Positions 8,632 through 54,665 of a stretch of 64,000 bases of DNA are shown here, one piece after another (within the stretch, counting starts at the first letter, position 1; the number at the start of each line of letters is the position of its first letter). Source of the stretch: a virus. Both the position numbers and the translations under genes were made by a program. Location of the stretch: the IMG/VR virus record IMGVR_UViG_3300048609_000070. One strand, given 5' to 3'. The notes beneath the pieces are model-generated. The model was not told where the DNA came from. It was given only the letters and a program-made list of their open reading frames with translations, and ran no database searches.

Positions 8632-9690
8632 ATGCGAAAACTGGCCACAATTCGAAAGGTATTGGACATCAAGCCCATCCCAAACGCGGATAGCATTGAA
8701 CTCGCGATGATCGGGGGTTGGCAATGCGTCGTCAAAAAGGGAGAATTCAAAATTGGTGACTTGGGGGTCTACTTCGAAATCGATTCCTTTTTACCGATAG
8801 ACGCCCGGTTCGAGTTCCTTCGGAAGTCATCCTACAAGACCCTGGCTGATGGGTCTGAAGGATTCCGTCTGAGGACGGTCAAGTTCCGAGGAGAGCTCTC
8901 TCAGGGGCTCTTGATGCCCTTGAGCACGTTTCCGGAGATGCCTGTGGATACCTACGACGTGACCAGTGCGCTCCATGTCAAGCTCTACACGCCGCCCACT
9001 CCTGCGTGCTTGTCCGGGGACGTCGTAGGGCCATTCCCTTCGTGCATACCCAAGACGGACGCGGAGAGGATCCAGAACATCCCTGACTACTTTTCCACAA
9101 TGAAAGATGAAGAATTTGAAGTCAGCGAAAAGGTCGATGGCACCAGTTTGACATGTTATTTTTTGAATGGAAAGGTTGGAGTCTGCGGCCGGAACTGGGA
9201 GTTAAAAGAAGACATGCGAAATGCTTACTGGAAGATCGCAAGTTATTTTATTCCTGCAGTGAAGGAGCTCCATTTGAATATTGCACTGCAAGGGGAGCTC
9301 TGTGGGGAGGGCATCCAGAGCAACCCTCTGAAGTTGAAAGGACAGAGATTATTTCTTTTCCATGTGTACGATCTGGATGAGAGTAAATATTACATGCCTG
9401 ATCAGCGTTGGGAATTGTTTGAGAAAATAAAATGTGATGCGCTGGATCACGTTCCGCTTATCAGTAAAAGAGTGAAAGTTTTTCAAGAATTGGATACCAT
9501 GGAAAAGATGCTGGATTATGCAGCAGGAAAGAGTTGTGTTTGTTCGCAGATGGTAACTTCAAAGTCTGTCCAAAGAAGAGTCATGGTTCAATCCACGATA
9601 GAACGTGAAGGATTGGTTTTCAAGTCTTGGAGTCATCCAGAGATTTGTTTCAAGGCGGTGAGCAATACTTATTTGTTGGGTGAGAAGTGA
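8632..9690 (+). CDS. ATP-dependent RNA ligase, Rnl-like (DraRnl/NgrRnl-type N-terminal domain)
   Basis: 352 aa. Nucleotidyltransferase motif I KVDGTS (candidate adenylylated Lys in SEKVDGTSLT). N-terminal IRKV..I.PIPNADSIELAMIGGWQCVVKKGEFKIGD resembles the Rnl5-family N-domain. Confidence 0.6.
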   Translation: MRKLATIRKVLDIKPIPNADSIELAMIGGWQCVVKKGEFKIGDLGVYFEIDSFLPIDARFEFLRKSSYKTLADGSEGFRLRTVKFRGELSQGLLMPLSTFPEMPVDTYDVTSALHVKLYTPPTPACLSGDVVGPFPSCIPKTDAERIQNIPDYFSTMKDEEFEVSEKVDGTSLTCYFLNGKVGVCGRNWELKEDMRNAYWKIASYFIPAVKELHLNIALQGELCGEGIQSNPLKLKGQRLFLFHVYDLDESKYYMPDQRWELFEKIKCDALDHVPLISKRVKVFQELDTMEKMLDYAAGKSCVCSQMVTSKSVQRRVMVQSTIEREGLVFKSWSHPEICFKAVSNTYLLGEK

Positions 9691-16919: not shown

Positions 16920-18101
16920 TCAATATAGATCCCTTTCGTGTCGTTCTTTTATGACATCTTGGCATAGATCGTCCAAAAAATTGATGTCTGGAGACTTTGG
17001 AATAAACTTCAAATAAGATCCGCTCTGGTAGATGCTATCGAGCTCTGCTTCTATCGTATCTGCAAAGTCTATCAGTTCATTATACGTCCAGGCACCATTC
17101 CTAACTTCCAGTAACAATTTTGCACGTTCTTTGTCTTTAACGTTGAGTGTTCCTTTGGTTAGGATTTCCTTACATTGCATCATCAGCCGTACCAGATGAG
17201 CAGCGTGTTTGCAATCGTAGCTAAACTTTGCTTCTGACTCTGCCCTTTTTTTATTCCGTGTCAAAATCCAATTTTGGTACTGATTCCACTCTGTCAACGC
17301 ATTTCTATATTTCTTTTCTGCTTGCAGAACGACAATATAGTTTTCATCAAACTTGTACTTCTTCGATGCCGCAAGCTTTGCAAGCTCGAACAACTTTTCG
17401 CTATCGAGCATGGCAATCAGTGAGTTGCGATGCTCCATGGCAATTGCCATCATTTCCACGATTCCATCTTGGATAGAACTGACAATGCTCTTGTCAACTT
17501 CTGCTTCTTCGAGGAGCCACAGACGCGCCTGTTTCTCTAGCAAGCTCTCTGCAGCTCCTCGGTTCTCTGGAGAGATCAAGCCAACGTCAGGAAGTCCATA
17601 CTCCGACCTTTCTGGCTTATGCGTCGGAGGATGCATTAGCCAACGTCTGTGCGTATTGATTCTTTTGAGTTGCGCTCTGGCATAACCAGAAAAAGAAAAC
17701 TTGGCACGACCGGAGAGGAATTTTGTGGCGTTCTCTCGAACGGATCTTCCTGCTTCCGAGCAATACATTGTCTCGCTCGGATCGATAAAAAGAAGCTCGA
17801 TGATGCTTGGGTTGCACACTGCAGCCAATTTGAAGAACTTTCTGATGTCGTAGATAACGACGTCTGCCGGATCTTCTGAGCTGTTGTATATTTTTTTGTA
17901 GTCTTTTGGAAGCCAACGGAGATCCCGTGGAGTAATTTTTAGTTCTGTTTGCTCGAAGTTTTTGTGGAATGATCGGAAATAATCAACGGGTGGAATGCAC
18001 CAGCCACGGACATCTAAATCTGAGGTTTCTGTTGCCATTCCATAGGCGTGAGACCCGGCAATCACCAGATATTCTGTATGATCGAAAACGTCGAATTCCA
18101 T
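16920..18101 (-). CDS. Pol-beta superfamily nucleotidyltransferase, RlaP-like
   Basis: 393 aa. NTase motif GSHAYGMATETSDLDVRG (GS..G...SDxD). Paralog at 36071..36826. Confidence 0.5.
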   Translation of the reverse strand: MEFDVFDHTEYLVIAGSHAYGMATETSDLDVRGWCIPPVDYFRSFHKNFEQTELKITPRDLRWLPKDYKKIYNSSEDPADVVIYDIRKFFKLAAVCNPSIIELLFIDPSETMYCSEAGRSVRENATKFLSGRAKFSFSGYARAQLKRINTHRRWLMHPPTHKPERSEYGLPDVGLISPENRGAAESLLEKQARLWLLEEAEVDKSIVSSIQDGIVEMMAIAMEHRNSLIAMLDSEKLFELAKLAASKKYKFDENYIVVLQAEKKYRNALTEWNQYQNWILTRNKKRAESEAKFSYDCKHAAHLVRLMMQCKEILTKGTLNVKDKERAKLLLEVRNGAWTYNELIDFADTIEAELDSIYQSGSYLKFIPKSPDINFLDDLCQDVIKERHERDLY

Positions 18102-21229: not shown

Positions 21230-22560
21230 TCCTCCTAAAGAGCGCGCTCTTGGGCAAGGAGACTGCCGTCTTTAGGCAGCAGAGGAATTGCCATTTTCCT
21301 TTCTGTTAGGTATTGACACACACCAGAGAAGTATCTATACTTGACGCCATGAAGCTCGTTGCGAACATCAAGTTGAAACCGACGCAGGAGCAAGCAACTA
21401 TCCTCAAGCAAACCATTGAAGTATCCAACGAAGCCTGTAATTATCTGTCTAATCGTGCTTGGACCACGAAGACATTTGGTCAGTATGCCCTGCATAAATT
21501 GGCATACCGCGAAACCAAAGAAAGATTCAAGCTTACTGCTCAGGTTGTTGTACGATCTATTGCCAAGGTTACCGATGCCTATAAGCTGGATATAAAGACT
21601 AAACCGTACTTCAGGAAATATTCTGCTCAACCCTATGACGAACGGATTATTAGATTTTCTAAAGACGATATCGTTTCGATCTGGACTATTGCTGATCGTC
21701 AAAAGATACCGTTTGTGATGGGCGAGTACCAACGCAAGTTGTTTTTCTTCCGCAAGGGAGAAGTTGACCTGATGATGATCGACGATGAATTTTACCTTGC
21801 TTGCGTCTGCGACATCAAGGACCCCGAGCTTATCCAGACCAATGATATTCTTGGAGTAGACTTTGGTATAGTCAACCTTGCTGCCGACTCCAATGGGAAA
21901 AACTACAGCGGAAAAGCAATCAACAAGAACAGATGCAAATTTTCTCACCGCAGAAGAAATCTTCAAAAGAAGAAAACCAGATCCGCCAAACGGAAGCTTC
22001 GGGGTATGTCTAGACAGCAAGAACGCTTCCAGAAGGATACCAACCACGTAATCTCGAAAGCAATCGTTGCAGATGCTAAACGCACCGTCTCTGCTATCGC
22101 TCTTGAGGATCTTCGCGGTATCAGAAAACGGGTAACGGCCAGAAAGCACCAGCGGGCGCGGTTGTCGAACTGGGGCTTCGCCCAGTTGCAAGCCTTCGTG
22201 ACGTACAAAGCGAAGAAGATGGGAATACCCATTATTCTTGTAGATCCTAAGAATACTTCTCGGGAGTGCCCTAAGTGTGGACATATCGACAAGAAGAATC
22301 GAAAGACAAGGGATGAGTTCGTTTGTATCAAGTGCGGTCTTGCTGGACCCGCTGATACAATTGCGGCATGGACAATTCGTTCCAGGGCCAGGGCTGCTGT
22401 CAATCAGCCGATGGTTTCGAGTGTTTGTGCAAGCTTGCATGACCTCTCAGAAACAAGCCGCCCGCTTTAGCTGGCGGTTATTGACAACCAACAGGTTACT
22501 CCGTTTTCTTCGGGCTGTCAAGCACTTTTTTCGGCTATCCGCGATCTGGTCCCGTCTTTT
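21230..22560 (+). mobile_element. IS605-family (IS1341-like, tnpB-only) insertion; ends approximate
   Basis: tnpB flanked by hairpin-rich subterminal sequences. Candidate omega-RNA region with hairpin CCGCCCGC...GGCGG at about 22470-22560. Lies between rmlC and rmlD. Confidence 0.5.
21313..22470 (+). CDS. tnpB: IS200/IS605-family TnpB (RNA-guided nuclease), catalytic motifs intact
   Basis: 385 aa. RuvC-I ILGVDFGIVNLA. RuvC-II AIALEDLRGIRK. Zn finger CPKCGH...CIKCG. RuvC-III PADTIAAWTI. Confidence 0.85.
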   Translation: MTHTREVSILDAMKLVANIKLKPTQEQATILKQTIEVSNEACNYLSNRAWTTKTFGQYALHKLAYRETKERFKLTAQVVVRSIAKVTDAYKLDIKTKPYFRKYSAQPYDERIIRFSKDDIVSIWTIADRQKIPFVMGEYQRKLFFFRKGEVDLMMIDDEFYLACVCDIKDPELIQTNDILGVDFGIVNLAADSNGKNYSGKAINKNRCKFSHRRRNLQKKKTRSAKRKLRGMSRQQERFQKDTNHVISKAIVADAKRTVSAIALEDLRGIRKRVTARKHQRARLSNWGFAQLQAFVTYKAKKMGIPIILVDPKNTSRECPKCGHIDKKNRKTRDEFVCIKCGLAGPADTIAAWTIRSRARAAVNQPMVSSVCASLHDLSETSRPL

Positions 22561-24479: not shown

Positions 24480-24790
24480 AGTCAACTTAAATTTTTGGCT
24501 GGTCATGATCTATTGTCCCCGCTTCCAGTACTCCCGGTCCCGCAATCTGATGGAGCAGTGGCGCTGTCCCAGGTCCTATACCTGTGTCGCAGCATCGTCC
24601 CTGTCTATGTTTCGCCGGGTCTCGTCCCTGTGTGTCCCGTATGTCACTGGTGGTCCCGTTATGGCGTCTTCAGCCCGCCGAGCGTACAGTCTAGTCCGAG
24701 AGCTCCTTTTAGTATGGGTTGTCCCACCGGTTGATGTCTCGGTTCGTCCCAGACCGAAGCCTTCAGTTTGTCCCTTACACGTCCCTGTCT
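24480..24790. repeat. GTCCC-motif array (about 12 copies at 10-30 nt irregular spacing) downstream of the Cas12-like gene
   Basis: GTCCC recurs (GTCCCCGC.., GTCCCGCAAT.., GTCCCAGG.., GTCCCTGTC.., GTCCCGTATG.. etc.). The plus strand is pyrimidine-rich. No convincing ORF. Confidence 0.6.
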
Positions 24791-27700
24791 CAACCTAAAC
24801 TTTGATAACTTTTTGCTTCGACTGCTTTCCAGAAGACCGCGGCTTGAACCCACACGCTCGGGTCGAAGAATGTTCCGGAGGGGTCACGGAAGAGGACCAT
24901 CTTGTTTTTCTCGTTGATTTTGACATCTATCTTTTTTGTAGCCATCGCCGTGTACGTCCCATTACCGTCCTTCTTGAAAAATTCAACAGCATCACTCTTG
25001 AAGTGTCCCTGCAGAATTTTTCCGAGCTCCAGGTTCAGTAGGTGTCCGTCTGTCTCGTATGCCACAGCGCGTACAGGATTTGCACTCCCTGTCAAATAAT
25101 TCATACCGTGATTTTGAGCAGCGTTGACGTCAACGTGGATCCGTGACCCGTCGCTTGTGACAAGGTATGGCCCTCCAGGAACTGGAATCAAATCCCGTCG
25201 CTTCAGCTGTAGCAAGTCTAGCTTAGCCTCTTTTACGAATGGTCGGAGCCAATGTCCTTGCGTTTGGATCGCATTTACTTCCTCGTCACTCTTTATTTCG
25301 TAGCATGCAATCCCTGGCGTTCTTGTCCCAGCGCTAAAGATTGAGGAGAAAGCAACGGGTGCTTTGCCAATGGCAAAGCCTTCGGCTTTGGCCCTTCGTT
25401 CGATTTCTTGTGCAATAGAGCGGTGACTCCATTGTGCAAGACGGACGTTTTCCTCAAGGTCCTGATCCTCGGTGATTCTATATCGTGTCAAGTCACCGAG
25501 GACGATAATATCCACAGGAGTATACGTATGACTCCAACTTTTATTTGAATAGGTATTTCCTTTTGCCGCCTCAATTATAAATGCTGTGAGCGTCTTGATC
25601 CGATCCATCTTCAAGTTCTGGATATGGACCAATAATCGAGATGCTACCACGCCTTGGGTAGACTTTTCCATCCGGCGAACTGGATAGTCAGGGCGAGAAT
25701 GCCGATCCCACGCTCTGATGAGATCTCGCGTTTTCTCCAGATAAGCAATCCGCCATATGGACTTTCCTCCAAGAGTCATCTTCTCCTGTCGCCAATCGTG
25801 AATATCCTTGGCGATGCGTGTTTCCTCCTCGAAATAGATTGGGCGCATGATTCGTTCCCAATTCTCGTGGGGGCAACCATATAGGATGCTCAACTCTCTA
25901 TGCACATCTTTATCGAGCTTTCCTCTCATCCCATTGAGGAGCTCTTTCCTTACTTCAGGATCTTGTGTCCCGTGCAATTGCCTTAAACCTGATAGTTTAT
26001 CGAGTTCCCTCCCAATGCGCCATAACCGCTCTTGCGCTTCCTTGCGTCCTTCGATCGCTTTCTCTGCGGGCATACGCAGCAAAAACGTCTGCTCATGGTG
26101 GATCTTGTGCCCTTCGACAGACCATAGCGGGTCTGTGCTTTTTTCTGCCCCGACCTCGAAAATTGAGCATGTGGCTGACACTCTAATGCCCAGGTGGACT
26201 GCCATGATTCGAATGCCAGGGACGATAGGAGATTTTTTCTCCGCAGATCTTGTAATTTTGCTCTTTGAAAGATACCTTGCAATGTCTCTGCGATCGACCG
26301 TAGGAATTTTTGTCTTGTGCTCCTCGGTCTCTACATTGACCGAGAGCATCAAGTAGGCCATGGCTCCGGGTCGTCCATCTCGGAGCTTCCAGGCACTTGT
26401 CGGATCGGACACGAATCGAGGTGATAAGATGAGAGACGCTCCTCCGGCAATGCTGACTTTTCGTTGGATATTGTCTTGCGATTCATACGATAGATACTGC
26501 TTTTTCTTGTCGTCCCACATTTTGAGCAGACGCAATTGGTATGTTGGTGCAATCTGGAAAAAGAATTTACGAATGCAGACCCCATCTGAATCCTTAGAAA
26601 ATAACGGCAGATCTACACAGAGTCCCTGTTCATTTTGTTTGAGCGTATAAGGCGGGTTGTTTCGATTTGAAAGTCCCGAAAATAGGGTGAATCTCGGATG
26701 GGTCTCTGCATCCGGAAAAGTGAGCATTGGGAGTTCTTTTGCTTCCTGAATCTTTTTTAATACCTTGTTTTTCTTTGCCCAATGAAAAACAGCATCCGGG
26801 TCGTCGAAGGCTTCTTTGGCGAGGTCAAGTAAGATGGTGGATCCGTGGTCCCCAGCTTGTACAATTCTTTCTCTTTGGTCCGTGATACCTTTAAGCTTTT
26901 TCCAATTTTTTATCTCTCGCTCAGTGATGAGATAGGCAGATTTTTCTGCCCAATTTCCAGCTCTTTTGATCTGTTCTTCCCTTTTCTGTTCAATACAGAT
27001 CAGAGTCTGCGAGTCCCTTTCGCTATACGGATTTCCTAATTTTTCCAGTTCTGCCTCTAGATCTTGTGTCCGTGCTGTGAGATTATGCCGCCAGCTTTCC
27101 CAGGAATTGAGATGTCCAACGGCGAGGGTGAAAGCCATACGCTCGTAGGCTTGCAGAGCTGTGGTCCCTAAAATGTCAAAGAGGAATGGATCAGCAAGTG
27201 GAAGCGCCCCGAGTGAACGGATCTCGCTCACCAGCGAATCCATTATCAATTTTTCTTTATTGGATGCAACGTACTTTGTTGCTGCATCTTTCCAGCCGGG
27301 ATCTCCTGTCTTGAACAGAGTCAGCCAATGTGCTTCCCTGCCGACTGAAGGTCCCATGAAAAGGGAATTATTCTTGATCTGATCTTCCAGGTTGGATTCA
27401 CTATCCATTATTCGCTGGAGGGTCCGAACGAGATTTGCCGCGTGAGATCCTCCTTGGGATTCTTTCTGCACGAGGAGGCCCTGGTAGCCTCGGACTTCAT
27501 CGGCAGATCCAGAGCCGCCCTCGCGGTAGGACTCGACATAATAAGGATAGAGCTCCTTTAATAAGGAGCAGCATCTATCAATATTTTTTACTTTGCGTTC
27601 CTTGAGCTTTGCCTGCAATCGGGACGTCCATTCGGAGCCCGGGACAGTCTCTTTTTCGAGCCGGACGTCATCCTGACGAATGGTCACGAGCATCTTTTCA

Positions 27701-27813
27701 TAGAAACGCACCATGTCGTTCACGATCTGATGCGTATACGCTAGAGCTCTTGCCCCATCAGTATTGGATTTTCTTGGAACGTGAAGTTTTAATCGTATAG
27801 CTCTTGTGTCCAC
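24790..27813 (-). CDS. Cas12b (C2c1)-like type V effector homolog, predicted nuclease-dead (GTG start)
   Basis: 1007 aa. RuvC-I region IMAVHLGIRVSATCSIFEV matches Cas12b ..SVDLG.R.SA..SVF.V but has His in place of the catalytic Asp. RuvC-II IIVLGDLTRY compared with Cas12b ILLEELSEY. Cas12b-like RLAQWSHRS. FSSIFSAGTRTPGIACYEI compared with FSSRFDARTGAPGIRC. RuvC-III HVDVNAAQNHG is retained. RBS GAGGGAG upstream of GTG. Confidence 0.75.
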   Translation of the reverse strand: MDTRAIRLKLHVPRKSNTDGARALAYTHQIVNDMVRFYEKMLVTIRQDDVRLEKETVPGSEWTSRLQAKLKERKVKNIDRCCSLLKELYPYYVESYREGGSGSADEVRGYQGLLVQKESQGGSHAANLVRTLQRIMDSESNLEDQIKNNSLFMGPSVGREAHWLTLFKTGDPGWKDAATKYVASNKEKLIMDSLVSEIRSLGALPLADPFLFDILGTTALQAYERMAFTLAVGHLNSWESWRHNLTARTQDLEAELEKLGNPYSERDSQTLICIEQKREEQIKRAGNWAEKSAYLITEREIKNWKKLKGITDQRERIVQAGDHGSTILLDLAKEAFDDPDAVFHWAKKNKVLKKIQEAKELPMLTFPDAETHPRFTLFSGLSNRNNPPYTLKQNEQGLCVDLPLFSKDSDGVCIRKFFFQIAPTYQLRLLKMWDDKKKQYLSYESQDNIQRKVSIAGGASLILSPRFVSDPTSAWKLRDGRPGAMAYLMLSVNVETEEHKTKIPTVDRRDIARYLSKSKITRSAEKKSPIVPGIRIMAVHLGIRVSATCSIFEVGAEKSTDPLWSVEGHKIHHEQTFLLRMPAEKAIEGRKEAQERLWRIGRELDKLSGLRQLHGTQDPEVRKELLNGMRGKLDKDVHRELSILYGCPHENWERIMRPIYFEEETRIAKDIHDWRQEKMTLGGKSIWRIAYLEKTRDLIRAWDRHSRPDYPVRRMEKSTQGVVASRLLVHIQNLKMDRIKTLTAFIIEAAKGNTYSNKSWSHTYTPVDIIVLGDLTRYRITEDQDLEENVRLAQWSHRSIAQEIERRAKAEGFAIGKAPVAFSSIFSAGTRTPGIACYEIKSDEEVNAIQTQGHWLRPFVKEAKLDLLQLKRRDLIPVPGGPYLVTSDGSRIHVDVNAAQNHGMNYLTGSANPVRAVAYETDGHLLNLELGKILQGHFKSDAVEFFKKDGNGTYTAMATKKIDVKINEKNKMVLFRDPSGTFFDPSVWVQAAVFWKAVEAKSYQSLG

Positions 27814-27839: not shown

Positions 27840-28365
27840 GTCTCTTTTACCGTATCTGCATCAGTATTCCTTTGTCTCTAGCTTCTTTGTCGTGCTCCGG
27901 ACATTGCGTCTCGTTCTCTTTCTGTCTCTTTTTTCCGTTGGGCTGTTCGACCCGTCTCTTATCGTAGTAAATTTTTATCACCTGTCTCTTTTTTCTTTTG
28001 TTTCAAGAGGTCTCTTTTTTCCATCTTTTGTACGATAATCTACTGGTTGTATGCCGCCACGCCAGCGACATACGAGAGACATCCAGTAGGCCCCCTGGGT
28101 CGTGTAGAGCCAGGTTAGTAGATCGTACTTTATATCTCTGAATTTCAAAGAACTCTGCGCGAGTATTGTATCTTTCCCATCCATTGCCTCGTCTGTCTCA
28201 CCCCAAACCAAAAATCGCTTTCGTGTCTATTTCCGTTTTCCTCGATGTCTCAGTCCCAGCAACAACCGGCTGGGGACACGTCTCATTATTCACTCGTAAC
28301 ACTAGGCTCCAGTCTCTTTTTCGCTTTAGAGTAGAAGTTCTCATCCGGTCTCGTAATTGCCGTCT
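27840..28365. repeat. GTCTC-motif array 2 (about 18 copies; extended form GTCTCTTTTT(T)C) between the promoter and the Cas12-like start
   Basis: The plus strand is almost pure pyrimidine except G in GTCTC. Motif spacing 14-45 nt. No stop codons on plus only because of A-depletion. Transcribed on the minus strand from the promoter at 28374-28401. Confidence 0.65.
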
Positions 28366-28618: not shown

Positions 28619-29395
28619 TCATGTGTTCCTCTCTGCTTGCATAGGGTCTCTTTGCATCCTCTCCAGCAGTCCGTAATATGCGGAGGCTAATCCACATTGG
28701 TCGCAAAGTTGAGTGAGTCCGACAGTCTCTATGATACTTTTTGTGCTTTCAAAAACACTCCCAATTTCCGTGCAGCTAGAGCATTCTCCGATTCTTATTT
28801 TTCCATTGACATCGATCATAGGAGAACACATTTTTCCAATTCTTTGTAATGTTCGGATCATAGTAACAAAATTCGCTTCCCGGAATTGCAATGCGAAAAG
28901 ATGAACGTTAGCGCAATGCGGAAAAACACGTTCACTTTTTGTATAGTTCTTTTTTGCTCGTCCTAAAAGTGTGATGCTAATCCCATCCTCGAAAAGTTGA
29001 GTGTTGGGGAGAGTCTCTAGCTTGAGATTTGCATGTATCACATGATAATTGGGGTAATATTTTGGGTGCGTCCTGATTTGCAAGCGTATGTTGGTAGTGG
29101 TCAGAAGATCCAACATATTGCGGTATTTTTCTTGGTCTGTATAGAACGAACCGTTACTCTGGATCATGATATCAGATTCAGGGAATACTTTACTGACGAT
29201 CTTGGCCCATGAAAAAAAGGAAGGGTGAAGTGTCGGTTCTCCACCTGTAATCTGGATTAAAATCGGTTTGACCTTCCGCAGCAATTTTAATGTAGCTGCA
29301 AAAGTCTTTTGCTCCATGTGCTCCCCGGAAGGATTTGCATCCTCCATGCAATGCGAGCAATTTTCAAGGCATCGGTTTGTAATTTTTACGAGCAT
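28619..29395 (-). CDS. radical SAM enzyme with C-terminal extra Cys cluster (twitch/SPASM-like)
   Basis: 258 aa. CxxxCxxC (CLENCSHC). GGEP motif (ITGGEPTLHP). C-terminal CSPM...GECSSCTEIG...CDQCG. Confidence 0.7.
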   Translation of the reverse strand: MLVKITNRCLENCSHCMEDANPSGEHMEQKTFAATLKLLRKVKPILIQITGGEPTLHPSFFSWAKIVSKVFPESDIMIQSNGSFYTDQEKYRNMLDLLTTTNIRLQIRTHPKYYPNYHVIHANLKLETLPNTQLFEDGISITLLGRAKKNYTKSERVFPHCANVHLFALQFREANFVTMIRTLQRIGKMCSPMIDVNGKIRIGECSSCTEIGSVFESTKSIIETVGLTQLCDQCGLASAYYGLLERMQRDPMQAERNT

Positions 29396-39540: not shown

Positions 39541-41390
39541 GGGCTGACGGGTTCATCCCGTCAGTCCCCTGCCACACCACCGGACATGCGGGTCCGCATC
39601 CGGCGGTTCGGTAGGTTGAGGTTATGCCGCAAGCCTCGGTACTCCTTGTCGGTCGTAGTAGCTCGTCGGCAGCGCAGTGTTCAACAGCTTCGCGGAATTG
39701 CACCACCAGCGGCGTGAGTTCGCGGCCACCCGCCGGGCGGCCTGGTCATTCGCTCCAAGCCGCTTCATCTCCCGGTAGATGGTCTTCCCTCGTATCCACT
39801 GTTTGAGCTGTATCATCCGCAGACGATGGCGTATCCATTCGTCGAGATTCATGAAGATGCCAGGCGTCTCGGCCAGGCGGAAATACCCTTTCCACCCAAG
39901 CAGGTAAGCCCGTAGCTCCGCGAACACCCGATTCATGCTCCGCCCTCGACTCCGGGTCGTGATGTCCCGGACCCGCTGCTTCATCGCTTCAAGGGCTTTT
40001 GGCGCCACGCGCCGCCGGACGACCTTTCCCGGGGCTACCCAGAAGCTGTACCCCAGGAACTTCCTTTCCCACGGTCGTGCCACCGCGCTCTTCATCTCGT
40101 TGACTCGCAGCCGTAGTCGCGCGTACAAGTCCCGAAGGGCCCGCATCACACGCTCGCCAGCTCGCTGCGACCCAACGTACACGTTGCAGTCATCAGCGTA
40201 GCGGACAAACGCATGCCCACGCTTCTCCAGCTCCTTATCCACTTCGTCGAGGAGCACGTTCGCCAACAGCGGTGAGAGAGGGCCGCCCTGCGGCGTCCCC
40301 TCGTACCGCTCCGTTGCCACCCCTCCCGCCATGATGCCGGCTTCGAGGTAGCGCCGGATGAGCCCCAGCATCCGCCTGTCTCCAATGCGCTTCTCCAGCC
40401 TCCCCATCAGCACGTCGTGGTTGACCCGGTCGAAGAACCGCTCCAGGTCCACGTCCACCACCACCCGCCTCCCTTCCTGGACATACCGCTGCGCTTCGCA
40501 GACCGCGTCGTGTGCGCTATGCCCGGGCCGAAAGCCGTGGCTGTGCTTCGAGAAGGTCGGGTCGAACATCGGTTGCAGGACCTGCAGGATGCTCTGCTGG
40601 ATGAACCGGTCGAGCACGGTTGGGATGCCAAGCTTTCGCACCCCGCCCCCGCTCTTCGGTATCTCCGCTTCCCGCACCGGTTTCGGCTGGTAGGTGCCTT
40701 CGAGCAGCTGCGCTCGAGTCGCCTCCCAGTGTTCAATCAGGTGCTTCGGCAGCTCGTCGACGGTCATCCCGTCCACACCGGGGCTGCCCTTGTTCTGCCG
40801 TACCCGCTTCAACGCCGCCTTGGCATTGCCGCGCTCGACCACCCGTTCCATCAGGTGGTCGATTCCTGAGCGCTCATCTCCGTTCGCCGCCGTCGGGGTT
40901 TCGCCGCTCCGTTGGGCCCTCGGGGCTTCACCCCTGCCTCCCAGCGGTAGCTCCAGCTGATTGGACTTCTGGCGCCTGACCCTTCCGAGACTCACGGTTG
41001 CCTCGCTCTCCCTTCCGTTCGGCCCTTCGCCGTTGCCGGCTACTATGGCCTCTGCTGACTTCTCGGTCCGGCTTTGTGCCGTCGCCCTTTCAGGCGTGGG
41101 CCGAGATCTCCTCAGGTAAGGGTTCATGGACTTCGCCGCACAGCCGCCGGATTTACGTCGTCTGACTCTTGGTCGCGAGGGCTTCGCGGTCCTTTGCCCG
41201 CTCGCCCTTGTCGACGCCGCCTTGTATCCGGTTCTTGTTCATCGGCTCGCGGCTTCACTACCCGCTTCTTTCAGCGCCGGCCTCGCGGCCGGACCGGTCT
41301 CCCGGCTTGCCGCCTTGCGGTTCGTGTGGGTCGCTGCGACCAACTCCCCAGGGGACTTTCACCCCCTGTCCATTCCCATGCTGAGCACAC
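39538..41390 (-). mobile_element. bacterial group II intron (about 1.85 kb); boundaries approximate
   Basis: 5' end GUGUGCUCAGCAUGG... at RC of about 41390. Domain V-like hairpin CCGCCGGATGCGGACCCGCATGTCCGGTGG and domain VI GGGGACTGACGGGATGAACCCGTCAGCCCC near 39541-39620. IEP in domain IV. GC about 62% against a flank of about 38%. Confidence 0.8.
39622..41127 (-). CDS. ltrA: group II intron-encoded reverse transcriptase/maturase
   Basis: 501 aa. RT motifs: GIPTVLDRFIQQS. GFRPG.SAHDA. YADD in FVRYADDCNVYVG. Maturase X domain. Confidence 0.9.
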   Translation of the reverse strand: MNPYLRRSRPTPERATAQSRTEKSAEAIVAGNGEGPNGRESEATVSLGRVRRQKSNQLELPLGGRGEAPRAQRSGETPTAANGDERSGIDHLMERVVERGNAKAALKRVRQNKGSPGVDGMTVDELPKHLIEHWEATRAQLLEGTYQPKPVREAEIPKSGGGVRKLGIPTVLDRFIQQSILQVLQPMFDPTFSKHSHGFRPGHSAHDAVCEAQRYVQEGRRVVVDVDLERFFDRVNHDVLMGRLEKRIGDRRMLGLIRRYLEAGIMAGGVATERYEGTPQGGPLSPLLANVLLDEVDKELEKRGHAFVRYADDCNVYVGSQRAGERVMRALRDLYARLRLRVNEMKSAVARPWERKFLGYSFWVAPGKVVRRRVAPKALEAMKQRVRDITTRSRGRSMNRVFAELRAYLLGWKGYFRLAETPGIFMNLDEWIRHRLRMIQLKQWIRGKTIYREMKRLGANDQAARRVAANSRRWWCNSAKLLNTALPTSYYDRQGVPRLAA

Positions 41391-42503: not shown

Positions 42504-42701
42504 AAAATATTGTAGGATGCTGGAAATGAGAATAAGAACGAAATACCAAATACATATATTTACTTAATTGTCCTGACTTATAAAAATATGAATTCCTTTT
42601 TGTTGCCGAAAAAGATTGTGTAAGTCGCATACCAGTTAGGCTAAATTTGCATGCCCAACGCATTGTTCTAGACATAGAGATTTGTTTTTTAGGTATTCTT
42701 A

Positions 42702-42908
42702 TCAATATTTTTCTCCAAGTAATTTCCAGGAGTAAGATCGATATTCTTTGTATCCATATCTATTTGTTTGCCTTGACCGTCCGCGTATACTATTGCTTGT
42801 TTCTGCATAGGATTGGGTCATTTCCTCGTAAGTTGCAGTATTTGCACAACTTGTGTTGGAACCAAACGCTCCCGAGTGTATTACTCGAAATTTAAGTATT
42901 TGTTTCAT
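42702..42908 (-). CDS. small protein, paralog 1 (..QSYAET...SWKLLGEK)
   Basis: 68 aa. Sits within an about 130-bp direct repeat shared with 43066-43180. Confidence 0.35.
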   Translation of the reverse strand: MKQILKFRVIHSGAFGSNTSCANTATYEEMTQSYAETSNSIRGRSRQTNRYGYKEYRSYSWKLLGEKY

Positions 42909-43077
42909 AGTTTAATTTTCGTAACATTCCTGCGTGGATAAAAGTGGCTGCGACTGAAAGAGACGTAGGATAAAGCCATATATGTATAGGACTGGTTATT
43001 TGGTATACAACTTATACTGTAGCTACATGTTCGCCGTTCTGTTTGTGACCTAGAAATTGGCCTTTTAGGTACTTTTA

Positions 43078-43299
43078 TCAAGATTTTTCTCCTGGTAATT
43101 TCCAAGAGTGTGATCTTCTACATCTATTTGCTTGGCTTGACCGAAATGGAAAACCGGGTCTTGTCTCTGCGTAGGATTGGTTAAGCTCTACGTAATATCC
43201 GGTCCTCGCAGAACTTATCGCATCGTTTCCTTTTTTCCATATTATGCTGGATAAAAGATCAGTGATGAAGGACCTCGATTTAGCAGGTTTGCACATCAT
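43078..43299 (-). CDS. small protein, paralog 2
   Basis: 73 aa. Conserved ..NQSYAET.....SWKLPGEK. Confidence 0.35.
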   Translation of the reverse strand: MMCKPAKSRSFITDLLSSIIWKKGNDAISSARTGYYVELNQSYAETRPGFPFRSSQANRCRRSHSWKLPGEKS

Positions 43300-43770
43300 T
43301 AAGCATTCTCAGCGCATTTAGTTTTTGACCAATGTGGATAAGATATTCCATGCGCTGCTCCTGTATGCTTAGAAGAATTATTCGTTGCATATGAATACGC
43401 TTGCCACACGTCTTTCTTACTAGCAGCTGAAAAAAAACAAGGAAAATCATCCCTTGTTCTACCATGGGAAAGGTCTCCGTAGAAAGCATTATTCTGTGAT
43501 TTGTTGCATAGATTCATTCTACACCCCAAAAATTTCTCTCCAAGTTATGCCCAATGGACTACGATACTTCCGTTCAGATCTAGAACGCTTGCTGTAAGTT
43601 GTCTTACTCCAACAAATCGAACTTTTGTATGCTACTGACTTCGGATGATAAAGGAACATTATTTATACCTTATTTGCAGGAATATTAAATACTCTTTTTG
43701 AAAAGTCATTCACATACCCTGCTATTTTTCCATCGTTGACATCCTCCCCGCCTTGAAAGACGGGGATTCC

Positions 43771-44811
43771 CTAGGCTAGGTTTGCTAGTGGCTTACCTAA
43801 CTTCAAAGGCGTTTGATGTCCCAAACGGAGTATGTTTTGAGCCGCATTAATATCGCGACTGTGAGTTTGCCCACAACTCTCACAAGTCCATACTCTTACG
43901 GAAAGGTCTGTCAGATCCTTCGGCCCCGACCTTTCCAGGCATTGACCACACGTTTGCGTAGTATATGCTTCGCTGACCAAGTGGAAGGCACCTTGCCGTC
44001 TACTGACCTTATATTCAAGGAGCCTTATCAGTCCTCGGTAAGCAGTATCATTGGTAGATTTACCACTTTGCAACTTCAAATCACCAACATAGATTTCTTG
44101 GTAAGTGCTGGCTAACTTGGTGGATATCTTATGGAGGTTATCCTGACGTTGACGCTGAACCTTACGAGCAAGATGCTTATGTTGCTTAGACTTTCTAAAC
44201 CGTTGGAGATTACCTAGCTTGACTACGCTTTTTCGAAAGCATTTAGGATTGTCAAAGACTTCTCCGTTAGAAGATACAGCAATACTGTTTAGTCCAAGGT
44301 CGATACCTACATGCACAGAGATTAGTGCTTTGGGTAGCAACTCAACCTCGCAAACCAATGTCAAATACCAATCTCCACAAGCATCTTCTACGAAGCTCCC
44401 TGTACATACTTTTCCTTCTAGTTCACGGGATTTGAAGAATTTGAACCAAGTACCATTGAACTTTACTTTATTATCTTTGACCTTGATAGAAATTGCCTTG
44501 AAAGGAATCCATCCTAAAGACTTCCTTGTGCGCCACTTTAGTTTACGACGGCATGTTTGTTTGCGAGATTTAGCATAAGTTTCATCGATTGCCTGTATAG
44601 TAGTAGCAGGTATCTTTAGAAGTTTACAGGAACCAGCAGTCAGGTTGTTCAAGTCAAATCCGGTTAGGAATTTATAGTGAGATTTAATCGCCTTACAGGA
44701 AGTTTCGTTGTCGTAGTTCCAGACAAAGTTAACTTTGGAAGCAGCTACGCGCAAGTGGCGCAGCTTGGAACGCGAAAGTTTGAACTTGTAAGTCGTATAC
44801 ATAACGTTCAC
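43771..44811 (-). CDS. tnpB: IS200/IS605-family TnpB homolog with non-canonical RuvC-II (GDL in place of EDL)
   Basis: 346 aa. RuvC-I VGIDLGL. RuvC-II position reads EIYVGDLKL. Zn finger CGQC...CESCG. RuvC-III SRDINAAQNIL. Hairpin CCCCGCCTTGAAAGACGGGG about 20 bp downstream of the stop. Confidence 0.8.
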   Translation of the reverse strand: MNVMYTTYKFKLSRSKLRHLRVAASKVNFVWNYDNETSCKAIKSHYKFLTGFDLNNLTAGSCKLLKIPATTIQAIDETYAKSRKQTCRRKLKWRTRKSLGWIPFKAISIKVKDNKVKFNGTWFKFFKSRELEGKVCTGSFVEDACGDWYLTLVCEVELLPKALISVHVGIDLGLNSIAVSSNGEVFDNPKCFRKSVVKLGNLQRFRKSKQHKHLARKVQRQRQDNLHKISTKLASTYQEIYVGDLKLQSGKSTNDTAYRGLIRLLEYKVSRRQGAFHLVSEAYTTQTCGQCLERSGPKDLTDLSVRVWTCESCGQTHSRDINAAQNILRLGHQTPLKLGKPLANLA

Positions 44812-45137
44812 TATATGTGGAGAAGCAAGTTATGTCAAGCAACAAAATTCATCCCCTACCTGAAGGAAGGGGGGTTTTCTTTTGAGGAGTAGGATAAAGT
44901 AACATTATTTACACTGGTCCTTTCCCGTAACTTTTCCAATTGATAGATCTTTTAGATCCTGCAAAGGAACAATTTTTGAACGTATATGGAGTTTTCGTAT
45001 GGGTTCTAGACGACGAATACCGCTGAAAGATAGGTCCGCACCGTCCATAAGAGCAATAAACTTCTCCACACAACGACCGATGCGCCCATGTAAATAGCGC
45101 AAGCTCCGCCATACTTTCTTTTGTTGTGCCGTAGAAT

Positions 45138-53360: not shown

Positions 53361-53960
53361 TTATTTTTCGATGGAGGCCAGCTTGTCGTAGTAGGCGGGA
53401 TCTTCTTTAAGGTGTGCCCACGCAATTTTCCCTGTTAATTTTGGACAATCGTGGGTGACATCCGTCTCTGGATCATGACTCCCGTGCTCAATCTCCACGA
53501 GGAGTCCCTTCCGGAGCTGCTCTGGGGAGAACGGGGAGTCCTCCCAATGGATTCCAATCTGCGTCCCTAGATCCTTGGCGAACTCGTCCGTGATTTCTTC
53601 TGGCCGGTAGGCGTCTCCGGAAGCGCCATCATCGTGGACATCCACCGGGGCGTCTTCTTCCTCATCGGCGACCTCGGCGAGCGCTGGAGGCTCGTCATAG
53701 GGGCTCCTCGTCGGGGTCGGCTCGCCGAACATCTGCCCGGTGAGTCCGCGCATGGGCTGGACCTGTCCCGGGTAGGTCGGGGGCTGCCCCAGTGGTTCCG
53801 GCGGTTTGTCGGGTTCCGGCGGAAGTGTCGGTGTTGTCGTCCCTGTTTGTGCATCGGTCAAGAGCTTTGTGATCTCTTTGACTTTATTGTCCGGGATGTT
53901 TTGTTTTCTGAGAATTTCTTCCAAGATTTTCGGTTCAAGTTTCTGTGCTCTTTTTTTCAT
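53361..53960 (-). CDS. hypothetical protein with Pro-rich linker
   Basis: 199 aa. GC-rich, Pro-rich middle (PTLPPEPDKPPEPLGQPPTYPGQ). Confidence 0.4.
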   Translation of the reverse strand: MKKRAQKLEPKILEEILRKQNIPDNKVKEITKLLTDAQTGTTTPTLPPEPDKPPEPLGQPPTYPGQVQPMRGLTGQMFGEPTPTRSPYDEPPALAEVADEEEDAPVDVHDDGASGDAYRPEEITDEFAKDLGTQIGIHWEDSPFSPEQLRKGLLVEIEHGSHDPETDVTHDCPKLTGKIAWAHLKEDPAYYDKLASIEK

Positions 53961-54665
53961 CTATAGCCTCGTCAAAAATTCTTCGTTTGGAGCGTTGTTA
54001 ATTGCGAAGTCCGCAGATGGCACGGAAATATCAGCTCCGCACCGTGGACATTTTTTTGCTCCTGCTGCAAACTCTTCAGATTCAATTCCGCAAAACGGAC
54101 AAGCATGGACGAAACTATCTGGATTTCTCTCAGATGGTTGATAGGGACCAGCAAAAGCGTCTGAAATAAGCTTGATTGCCGCATGAAGATGCCGCATGCT
54201 ATTTTTTTCCATTGTTTTTTCTCCAAGCTCTATCCAGCACTCCGGAGCTTTAAATATTTTTCCGTAGTCTTGGAAGATCTCCAGGTTCCCTTCCTCGTCA
54301 TCGATAAAAACTAAATCTTTATGATCTTTTAGTTTATTTTCTACCATTGACTTTTTGAATTTGGAAGGAGGGGTATGATCGTCCCGTAAAAATAAATGGT
54401 CATTGTCTACGTCAAAATCGTAATGCTTCTTGAGCCAATCCTTTGTTGTTTCCCTTAATGTTTCTCTCCTTCCAGAAATAAAATAAACATCGTCAAAGAT
54501 CTTTGTCATTTTAGGAAGGACTTTTTGAGCTTCTGGAAAAGGAGAATCTTTTTCTACCATGTCCGGAGAAAAAAAGGCGTCCCAATCTGGTTTTTCACAT
54601 TCAACAAGATGAGCACGATGGTCCGTGTTAGCGAGTGTCCCGTCAATGTCAAGGACAAGAATCAT
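53961..54665 (-). CDS. HAD-superfamily phosphatase (PNK-phosphatase-like) with C-terminal zinc ribbon
   Basis: 234 aa. Motif I LVLDIDGTL. C-terminal CPFCG...CPRCG. Confidence 0.6.
   Translation of the reverse strand: MILVLDIDGTLANTDHRAHLVECEKPDWDAFFSPDMVEKDSPFPEAQKVLPKMTKIFDDVYFISGRRETLRETTKDWLKKHYDFDVDNDHLFLRDDHTPPSKFKKSMVENKLKDHKDLVFIDDEEGNLEIFQDYGKIFKAPECWIELGEKTMEKNSMRHLHAAIKLISDAFAGPYQPSERNPDSFVHACPFCGIESEEFAAGAKKCPRCGADISVPSADFAINNAPNEEFLTRL

Follow-up and report, generated by a model that had tools for sequence, protein, structure and literature searches.

A stretch of 64,000 nucleotides from the IMG/VR virus record IMGVR_UViG_3300048609_000070, here called the window, carries on its minus strand a gene for a TnpB protein with glycine in place of the canonical RuvC-II glutamate. 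A preliminary description of this gene, drawn from the sequence alone, had considered both a nuclease-dead regulator resembling TldR and a clade with a relocated catalytic glutamate. We find that an invariant glutamate further downstream, Glu281, probably completes the catalytic triad, and that the gene lies in an IS200/IS605-type element with an omega-RNA-like structure at its 3′ end. The tnpB open reading frame (ORF) and the residues discussed below are located as follows.

43771..44811, minus strand: tnpB ORF, 346 amino acids from the GTG at 44811 and 343 amino acids from the likelier ATG at 44802
44299..44301, minus strand: codon of the RuvC-I aspartate Asp171 (VGIDLGL), invariant in family alignments and Asp in all 86 aligned related-loci sequences
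44083..44085, minus strand: codon of Gly243 (IYVGDLK), on ISDra2 E278, invariant in 121/121 sequences, at the C-terminal end of model strand 239-244
43969..43971, minus strand: codon of Glu281 (VSEAYTTQTC), the candidate relocated catalytic glutamate or alternative Glu (altE), invariant in 121/121 and 72/72 sequences
43873..43950, minus strand: C4 zinc finger (CGQC...CESCG; C288, C291, C310, C313) of the TNB domain (Cas12f1-like_TNB, PF07282, 67.9 bits), four Cys invariant
43852..43854, minus strand: codon of the RuvC-III aspartate Asp320 (SRDINAAQN), invariant in family alignments

Besides the TNB profile, the 346-residue ORF matches OrfB_IS605 of Pfam (PF01385, 45.2 bits) and the NCBIfam family guided_TnpB (NF040570) at 167.5 bits, with a cut-off of 100. 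Translation more likely starts at ATG 44802 than at GTG 44811, because the JGI gene call P0001 starts there and residues 1-3 are gapped in most relatives. With 72 homologues as input, AlphaFold2 gave a model with a mean predicted local distance difference test score (pLDDT) of 92.1, and the top Foldseek match of this model among solved structures is the ternary complex of ISDra2 TnpB (8h1j; query TM-score, TMq, 0.79, E=2e-21). Judged by the quality of this model and by the match to 8h1j, the product is a complete TnpB with the WED-REC-RuvC-TNB fold and no truncated derivative. More than 1000 homologues are found at E<1e-5. The family is widespread in Proteobacteria and viral contigs: IMG/VR contains at least 492 loci and bacterial genomes contain at least 535, with multi-copy cases among them. 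The identical tnpB gene sequence and locus is also present in an independent second sample (L001).

Conservation was assessed in four sets of sequences: the query with its best 120 homologues (121 sequences), a second set of 72 homologues, an alignment of 86 related loci made up of the query, viral loci and metagenome loci, and a non-redundant set of 278 relatives that combines homologous proteins with loci translated from bacterial genomes and viral contigs. When the protein is aligned to ISDra2 TnpB by phmmer (8bf8/8exa, E=1.5e-20), IYVG243DLK falls on IGTE278HLK and places Gly243 exactly at E278, which bears out the initial observation that the RuvC-II glutamate is replaced by glycine. The canonical D-E-D RuvC triad is absent from its standard positions, with Gly243 at RuvC-II and D171 and D320 present. 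The RuvC-I motif VGIDLGL, the zinc finger and the RuvC-III motif SRDINAAQN had been described as kept, and all were located; D171, Gly243, Glu281, D320 and the four zinc-finger cysteines are invariant in both the 121 and the 72 homologues. Gly243, on this evidence, is neither chance nor a sequencing error, because it is invariant in 121/121 sequences and the same gene sequence recurs in the independent sample L001.

In the same ISDra2 alignment Glu281 falls on Pro323. It lies 38 residues after Gly243 and seven before the first CxxC. Assignment of secondary structure by DSSP in the AlphaFold2 model shows that Gly243 closes strand 239-244 and that Glu281 comes directly after the next strand, 275-280. 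At the site corresponding to position 281, canonical TnpBs carry Pro, Arg or Lys. The combination D-G-E-D at the four positions 171/243/281/320 is found in 228 of the 278 non-redundant relatives and D-E-(R/K/P/T/S)-D in 37; the remainder are few, being cut by contig ends or changed in RuvC-I or RuvC-III (two have F at 171 and one has N at 320). Glycine at the RuvC-II position is present in all 121 homologues, in 63 of the 86 related-loci sequences and in 238 of the pooled 278, where the 228 are those with complete D-G-E-D. No complete sequence among the 278 has Gly without Glu281 or both glutamates together, and the pattern is the same in the 86 related-loci sequences. The canonical and the alternative glutamate are thus mutually exclusive in the pooled set (228 with Gly and Glu against 37 with Glu and a residue other than Glu, with no complete exception). 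From its secondary-structure position and the literature we infer that Glu281 lies near D171 and D320 in the active site. D171, altE281 and D320 would then form the triad, and this TnpB is probably not a dead enzyme.

TnpBs of this kind have been described before. Altae-Tran et al. 2023 (PMC10691335) reported large RuvC-II-rearranged clades, RIIr-3 and RIIr-5, and branches such as the virus-associated RIIr-4, in which the RuvC-II Glu is changed to Gly and compensated in AlphaFold models by a Glu on β5 instead of β4, as in RuvX; the strand positions of Gly243 and Glu281 in our model match this relocation. Jiang et al. 2023 (PMC10530073) named the rearranged group TnpB2 and placed the alternative Glu ~45 residues downstream. 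They found that the mutation E467A in ApmFNuc abolishes cleavage, and that the rearranged TvTnpB cuts DNA specifically at its target-adjacent motif (TAM) and without collateral activity. A 2026 preprint gives the two residues of ApmFz2 as G416/E467 and Pro as the usual residue at the altE position of canonical TnpBs. It names the position of ISDra2 Pro323 as the altE site, and the alignment of Glu281 to Pro323 agrees with this.

The protein resembles the RIIr/TnpB2 clades, as RIIr-3, -4 and -5 are described, in the Gly at the canonical RuvC-II Glu, a conserved alternative Glu that follows on the next strand after ~40-50 residues, the retained C4 zinc finger and DRDxN-type RuvC-III, and the IS200/IS605-type ends of mobile elements that are frequent in viruses (RIIr-4). 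It differs in the spacing from Gly to Glu, 38 residues here compared to the published "approximately 45". TvTnpB from Thermoplasma volcanium shares the D-altE-D logic, the IS605 association and an omega-RNA at the right end, but it is archaeal, has the TAM NTGAC and adjoins TnpA, whereas the gene in the window is tnpB-only with TTTATC as its probable TAM. In Fanzor2 of Acanthamoeba polyphaga mimivirus (ApmFz2/ApmFNuc, 9b0l), G416 and E467 correspond to Gly243 and Glu281, although that protein is larger (520 amino acids) and comes from a eukaryotic virus and another transposon context. The family profile matches 9b0l at E=1.5e-26, and by coordinate arithmetic only, if the stretch is ungapped, profile position 138 falls on chain residue 467 as the family Glu; the Foldseek match of our model to 9b0l has a TMq of 0.70. 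ISDra2 TnpB (8exa/8h1j), the best structural match, has the same domain order, zinc finger and RuvC-I/III, an omega-RNA whose sequence overlaps the gene at its 3′ end, and a TAM situated 5′ of the LE; unlike the protein described here it has the canonical E278 together with Pro323 at the altE position, 408 amino acids and the TAM TTGAT. The locus adds a new and so far uncharacterised member to a published kind, a RuvC-II-rearranged TnpB in an IS200/IS605-type element. Of the two initial suggestions, the clade with a relocated glutamate is the one that agrees with the invariance of Glu281, its exclusion of the canonical Glu among the 278 relatives and the published RIIr/TnpB2 groups.

The gene is enclosed by the ends of a transposable element, whose parts are the following.

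43736..44892, minus strand: IS200/IS605-type tnpB-only element, 1157 bp, with ends set from conserved loci and multi-copy relatives
44893..44898, minus strand: probable TAM TTTATC, directly 5′ of the left end, exactly where the identity of multi-copy relatives is lost
44812..44892, minus strand: left end (LE), with a subterminal hairpin and a sigma-70-like promoter
44853..44872, minus strand: LE hairpin CCCCCCTTCCTTCAGGTAGGGG, kept in position and shape in the related loci L082, L083, L085, L003, L030 and L072
44838..44810, minus strand: sigma-70-like promoter TTGACA-17-TATAGT, score 11/12
43736..43770, minus strand: right end (RE) GGAAUCCCCGUCUUUCAAGGCGGGGAGGAUGUCAA, with the terminal TCAA at 43736..43739 and a hairpin at 43746..43765
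43647..43668 and 44893..44914, no strand assigned: 22-nt direct repeat GATAAAG[G/T]AACATTATTTA[T/C]AC, 20/22 identical, 0.01 matches expected by chance

The TnpB-element family is mobile and its ends are precisely set, because near-identical copies sit at different sites. In multi-copy relatives the left boundary follows directly after TTTATC (L083/L084 and L117/L118), TTTAAC (L126/L128/L129) or TTATC (L144/L146). L083 and L084 represent one element in different flanking DNA on two metagenome contigs, bounded by TTTATC on the left and by GGATGTCAA on the right; L117 and L118 are two copies in Acinetobacter thermotolerans with the same ends, and a Psychromonas metagenome-assembled genome has three copies with TTTAAC at the left. 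In the window 18 nt separate TTTATC from the LE hairpin, compared to 15-17 nt in relatives, and the subterminal hairpins of the two ends resemble each other. At the right, the closest loci share GGAATCCCCG..TTTAG..CGGGGAGGA[T/C]GTCAA, and similarity stops abruptly after GTCAA in 27 related loci. The -10 box of the promoter ends only 7 nt before ATG 44802, a layout common to L082 and L083, which suggests that the tnpB mRNA may be leaderless. A regular-expression scan revealed no Y1 TnpA in the window, and such a gene adjoins only a few distant relatives. The element in the window is a tnpB-only, non-autonomous copy.

The 22-nt direct repeat contains TATAAATA on the minus strand. One copy abuts the LE and includes the TAM, and the other lies 67 nt beyond the end of the RE. 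IS200/IS605 elements make no target-site duplications, and since in addition the RE-side copy lies so far beyond the conserved RE, a target-site duplication is a disfavoured explanation of the repeat. The simplest reading would be a local repeat that existed before, with the element inserted at the TTTATC of one copy. An element-free allele would read ...AATGTTACTTTATC joined directly to CGATGGAAAAATAGC.

The 3′ part of tnpB and the right end also contain the features of a guide RNA.

43736..43955, minus strand: omega-RNA-like scaffold formed by the 3′ part of tnpB and the right end, 5′ limit approximate
43810..43827, minus strand: covarying internal stem-loop CGUUUGGGACAUCAAACG within the codons for RLGHQT, alignment columns 183-200
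43746..43765, plus strand: hairpin CCCCGCCTTGAAAGACGGGG (plus-strand sequence), 6-25 nt past the tnpB stop
43716..43735, minus strand: predicted guide segment CGAUGGAAAAAUAGCAGGGU in the flanking DNA, placed from the RE boundary and known TnpB architecture

An RNAalifold consensus of 25 loci, covering the last ~220 nt plus flank, has 24 pairs, 13 of them with compensatory changes. The covarying parts are the RLGHQT stem, the terminal hairpin and a long-range pairing beside the guide junction; in the RLGHQT stem 6 of 7 pairs show 7-15 double-sided changes among the 25 sequences. Folded as a single sequence, the RNA of the window reaches -76.8 kcal/mol (z = -3.16) and beats all 200 shuffled versions. 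Sub-threshold Rfam matches to HgcC (25.7 bits) and sot0042 (25 bits) lie at 43723..43887 on the minus strand; both are RNAs known originally from the 3′ ends of IS605/IS1341 tnpB genes. The structure fits an omega-RNA that, if expressed, would have a scaffold ending in ...GGAUGUCAA and a guide starting at 43735. The hairpin had initially been placed about 20 bp 3′ of the stop, where an omega-RNA would be; it is present, though nearer to the stop, and its assignment to the omega-RNA site holds, as from the alignments it is both the RE subterminal hairpin and the last stem of the covarying omega-RNA-like structure. The predicted guide segment has no second match in the window at three or fewer mismatches.

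We favour the explanation that the locus encodes a catalytically competent RuvC-II-rearranged TnpB in a tnpB-only IS200/IS605-family element with an omega-RNA, and estimate its probability at about 0.82. It is supported directly by family membership, the fold, the conservation and mutual exclusivity of residues, the element ends and the RNA covariation, and it would further imply that Glu281 reaches the active site in three dimensions, that the protein cleaves DNA with TAM specificity, that the RNA is expressed and that the element acts in homing. In such a mechanism Glu281 at the end of the next strand would supply the third active-site carboxylate, with Gly243 in place of the strand-4 Glu. 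The tnpB gene, the sole gene of a non-autonomous element, would be expressed from the internal promoter, and transcription of the 3′ part of tnpB and on past the RE would yield the omega-RNA, with the adjacent flank (43735 downward) as its guide. The TnpB-RNA complex could then cut DNA in which TTTATC is followed by the guide sequence, that is, the element-free allele, and recombinational repair after the cut would restore or spread the element. Transposition would need a Y1 TnpA in trans.

Several points weigh against this explanation. The experimentally tested TvTnpB and ApmFz2 are distant relatives, and activity is assigned here by analogy. Within the window the element occurs once and TnpA is missing, so this copy can at present be regarded only as potentially mobile. 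An empty-site allele was not found by blastn against phages, by a search for the 22-nt flank pattern in IMG/VR or by a search for the guide-flank 25-mer in metagenome contigs. A minor point is the RuvC-III context, SRD here compared to DRD as is usual in the family.

A copy that is active but domesticated would no longer transpose, and its fixed guide would serve the host genome, for example by cutting insertion-free co-infecting relatives as a weapon in competition or homing. The single copy without TnpA would fit such a role, and so would the frequency of the family in viral contigs, the identical locus in the second sample and the phage-like neighbours of the element (primase, polynucleotide kinase, DNA methyltransferases, RNA ligase and thymidylate kinase). 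Together with a group II intron, these surrounding genes point to a phage or some other mobile genome. However, its phage nature is itself not established; none of the ORFs tested was identified as a structural gene. The element's ends, canonical throughout, cannot be told apart from the ends of mobile relatives, a lone tnpB is the norm for this family, and neither a target nor an empty allele turned up with the flank pattern in IMG/VR or the 25-mer in metagenome contigs. We therefore regard domestication as unlikely.

A nuclease-dead, TldR-like regulator, in which Gly kills catalysis and guide-RNA-directed DNA binding represses a target gene, is very unlikely. It would account for the absent canonical RuvC-II Glu, which is all that the protein shares with TldRs, and for the single copy without TnpA in the window. 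TldRs reportedly lose active-site residues and are C-terminally truncated, and their partner genes are flagellin or oligopeptide-transporter genes. In contrast to TldRs, which have neither a functional triad nor transposon ends and stand beside partner genes, the protein described here is full length and keeps D171, D320 and the zinc finger, and its compensating Glu281 is invariant and excludes the canonical Glu. The gene lies between an intact LE and RE with a TAM, and its relatives are multi-copy mobile elements. The annotated flanks are a thymidylate kinase upstream and ORFs without a family match on either side, with no flagellin or oligopeptide-transporter partner. At the level of the family, the compensating Glu and the activity published for TvTnpB and ApmFz2 also speak against the idea of a dead enzyme raised in the preliminary description. 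A decaying pseudogene, with Gly as a recent inactivating mutation in a dying insertion-sequence copy, would explain the absent canonical Glu and nothing else, and we dismiss it because hundreds of homologues, with identities as low as ~35%, all have the Gly and the ORF is intact and full length with all other conserved residues kept.

The window contains two further proteins that bear on the RuvC-II motif.

24790..27813, minus strand: Cas12b-like protein, 1007 amino acids, NCBIfam Cas12b 310 bits
21313..22470, plus strand: second TnpB, 385 amino acids, with canonical ALEDL, Pro at the altE position (VDPKNTS) and a PADTIAA-type RuvC-III

The local GDL of the TnpB had also been seen in the Cas12b-like protein and had been read as a hint of an evolutionary relationship. 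The motif is indeed there (IIVLGDLTRY), with G773 on E848 of AacCas12b. The RuvC-I Asp of this protein has become His (H540; MAVHLGIR vs SVDLGLR), RuvC-III D895 is kept, and there is no compensating Glu, as Val occupies the relocated-Glu position (PVAFSS). BLASTP of the Cas12b-like protein against the TnpB gave no significant match (best E=0.91). A word-indexed search for relatives of the Cas12b-like protein returned one match only, which is canonical; an exhaustive HMMER search returned 361, with up to 37% identity, most of which keep D/E/D, while residue losses are scattered among a few; P0132 has the same H and G. The proposed relationship is not supported by these comparisons, by which the GDL common to the two proteins is convergent. 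The Gly of the Cas12b-like protein, as far as its alignments show, is an independent, lineage-specific loss, because its relatives mostly keep Glu, its RuvC-I Asp is also gone and it has no altE. No CRISPR array was found near the gene or elsewhere in the window. The protein looks like a nuclease-dead, array-less Cas12b derivative, and it is a more interesting lead than the TnpB. A short motif, GTCTCTTTTTT, recurs between genes at 27917..28020 and 29591..29901, upstream of the Cas12b-like gene and around a radical-SAM ORF, and may be a regulatory element.

The second TnpB provides an internal control with the canonical arrangement. Its gene is antisense to a 401-residue ORF (21235..22440, minus strand) that has no Pfam match, and because of this overlap one of the two ORFs is probably spurious. 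The window thus sets side by side a TnpB with the canonical site, one with the rearranged site and a Cas12b-like protein that seems to be dead.

Other features of the surrounding genome are listed below.

39622..41300, minus strand: group II intron with a reverse transcriptase/maturase ORF of 501 amino acids (RVT_1 and GIIM) and Rfam group-II D1-D4 at 41022..41292
30392..32899, minus strand: 835-residue protein carrying the shoulder and repeat domains of Major Vault Protein (PF11978 70.5 bits, PF17795 38.7 bits)
8632..9690 (plus strand), 16920..18101 (minus strand) and 53961..54665 (minus strand): scattered RNA-repair genes, namely RNA ligase (DRB0094 type), RlaP nucleotidyltransferase and polynucleotide kinase

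The group II intron segment is locally GC-rich (0.58). The vault-domain protein is unusual for a prokaryote or phage, and its gene is close to those of the Cas12b-like protein and the radical-SAM ORF (28619..29395). Just downstream of the transposable element, at 42690..43560, are two to three diverged copies of a ~370-nt repeat unit that share a ~170-nt conserved block ending in ...GGAAATTAC..GGAGAAAAAT.TTGATAA. The copies could be small paralogous genes or RNAs. In the stretch from 42.7 to 43.5 kb ARAGORN found no tRNA, Rfam gave no match (the group II intron was its only result) and TRF detected no tandem array, its sole match being an 18-nt repeat at 53794-53831. We dropped the interpretation of this stretch as a tRNA or CRISPR array, as none of the three programs supported it.

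The single tnpB-only copy might also serve as a homing or competition device, in which a flank-guided D-altE-D nuclease would cut TTTATC-adjacent alleles of co-infecting, element-free relatives and the element would be copied in. We consider this rather unlikely, but if true, the rearranged site, which is reported to act without collateral cleavage of single-stranded DNA, might allow a replicating phage genome to tolerate the nuclease. With the family profile, the ends as defined above (TTTATC at the left boundary and GGATGTCAA at the right) and the covarying scaffold, the compact 343-residue D-altE-D nuclease could be tested as a genome editor. For TnpBs in general, a missing RuvC-II Glu calls for a look at the strand-5 position before the enzyme is taken to be inactive.

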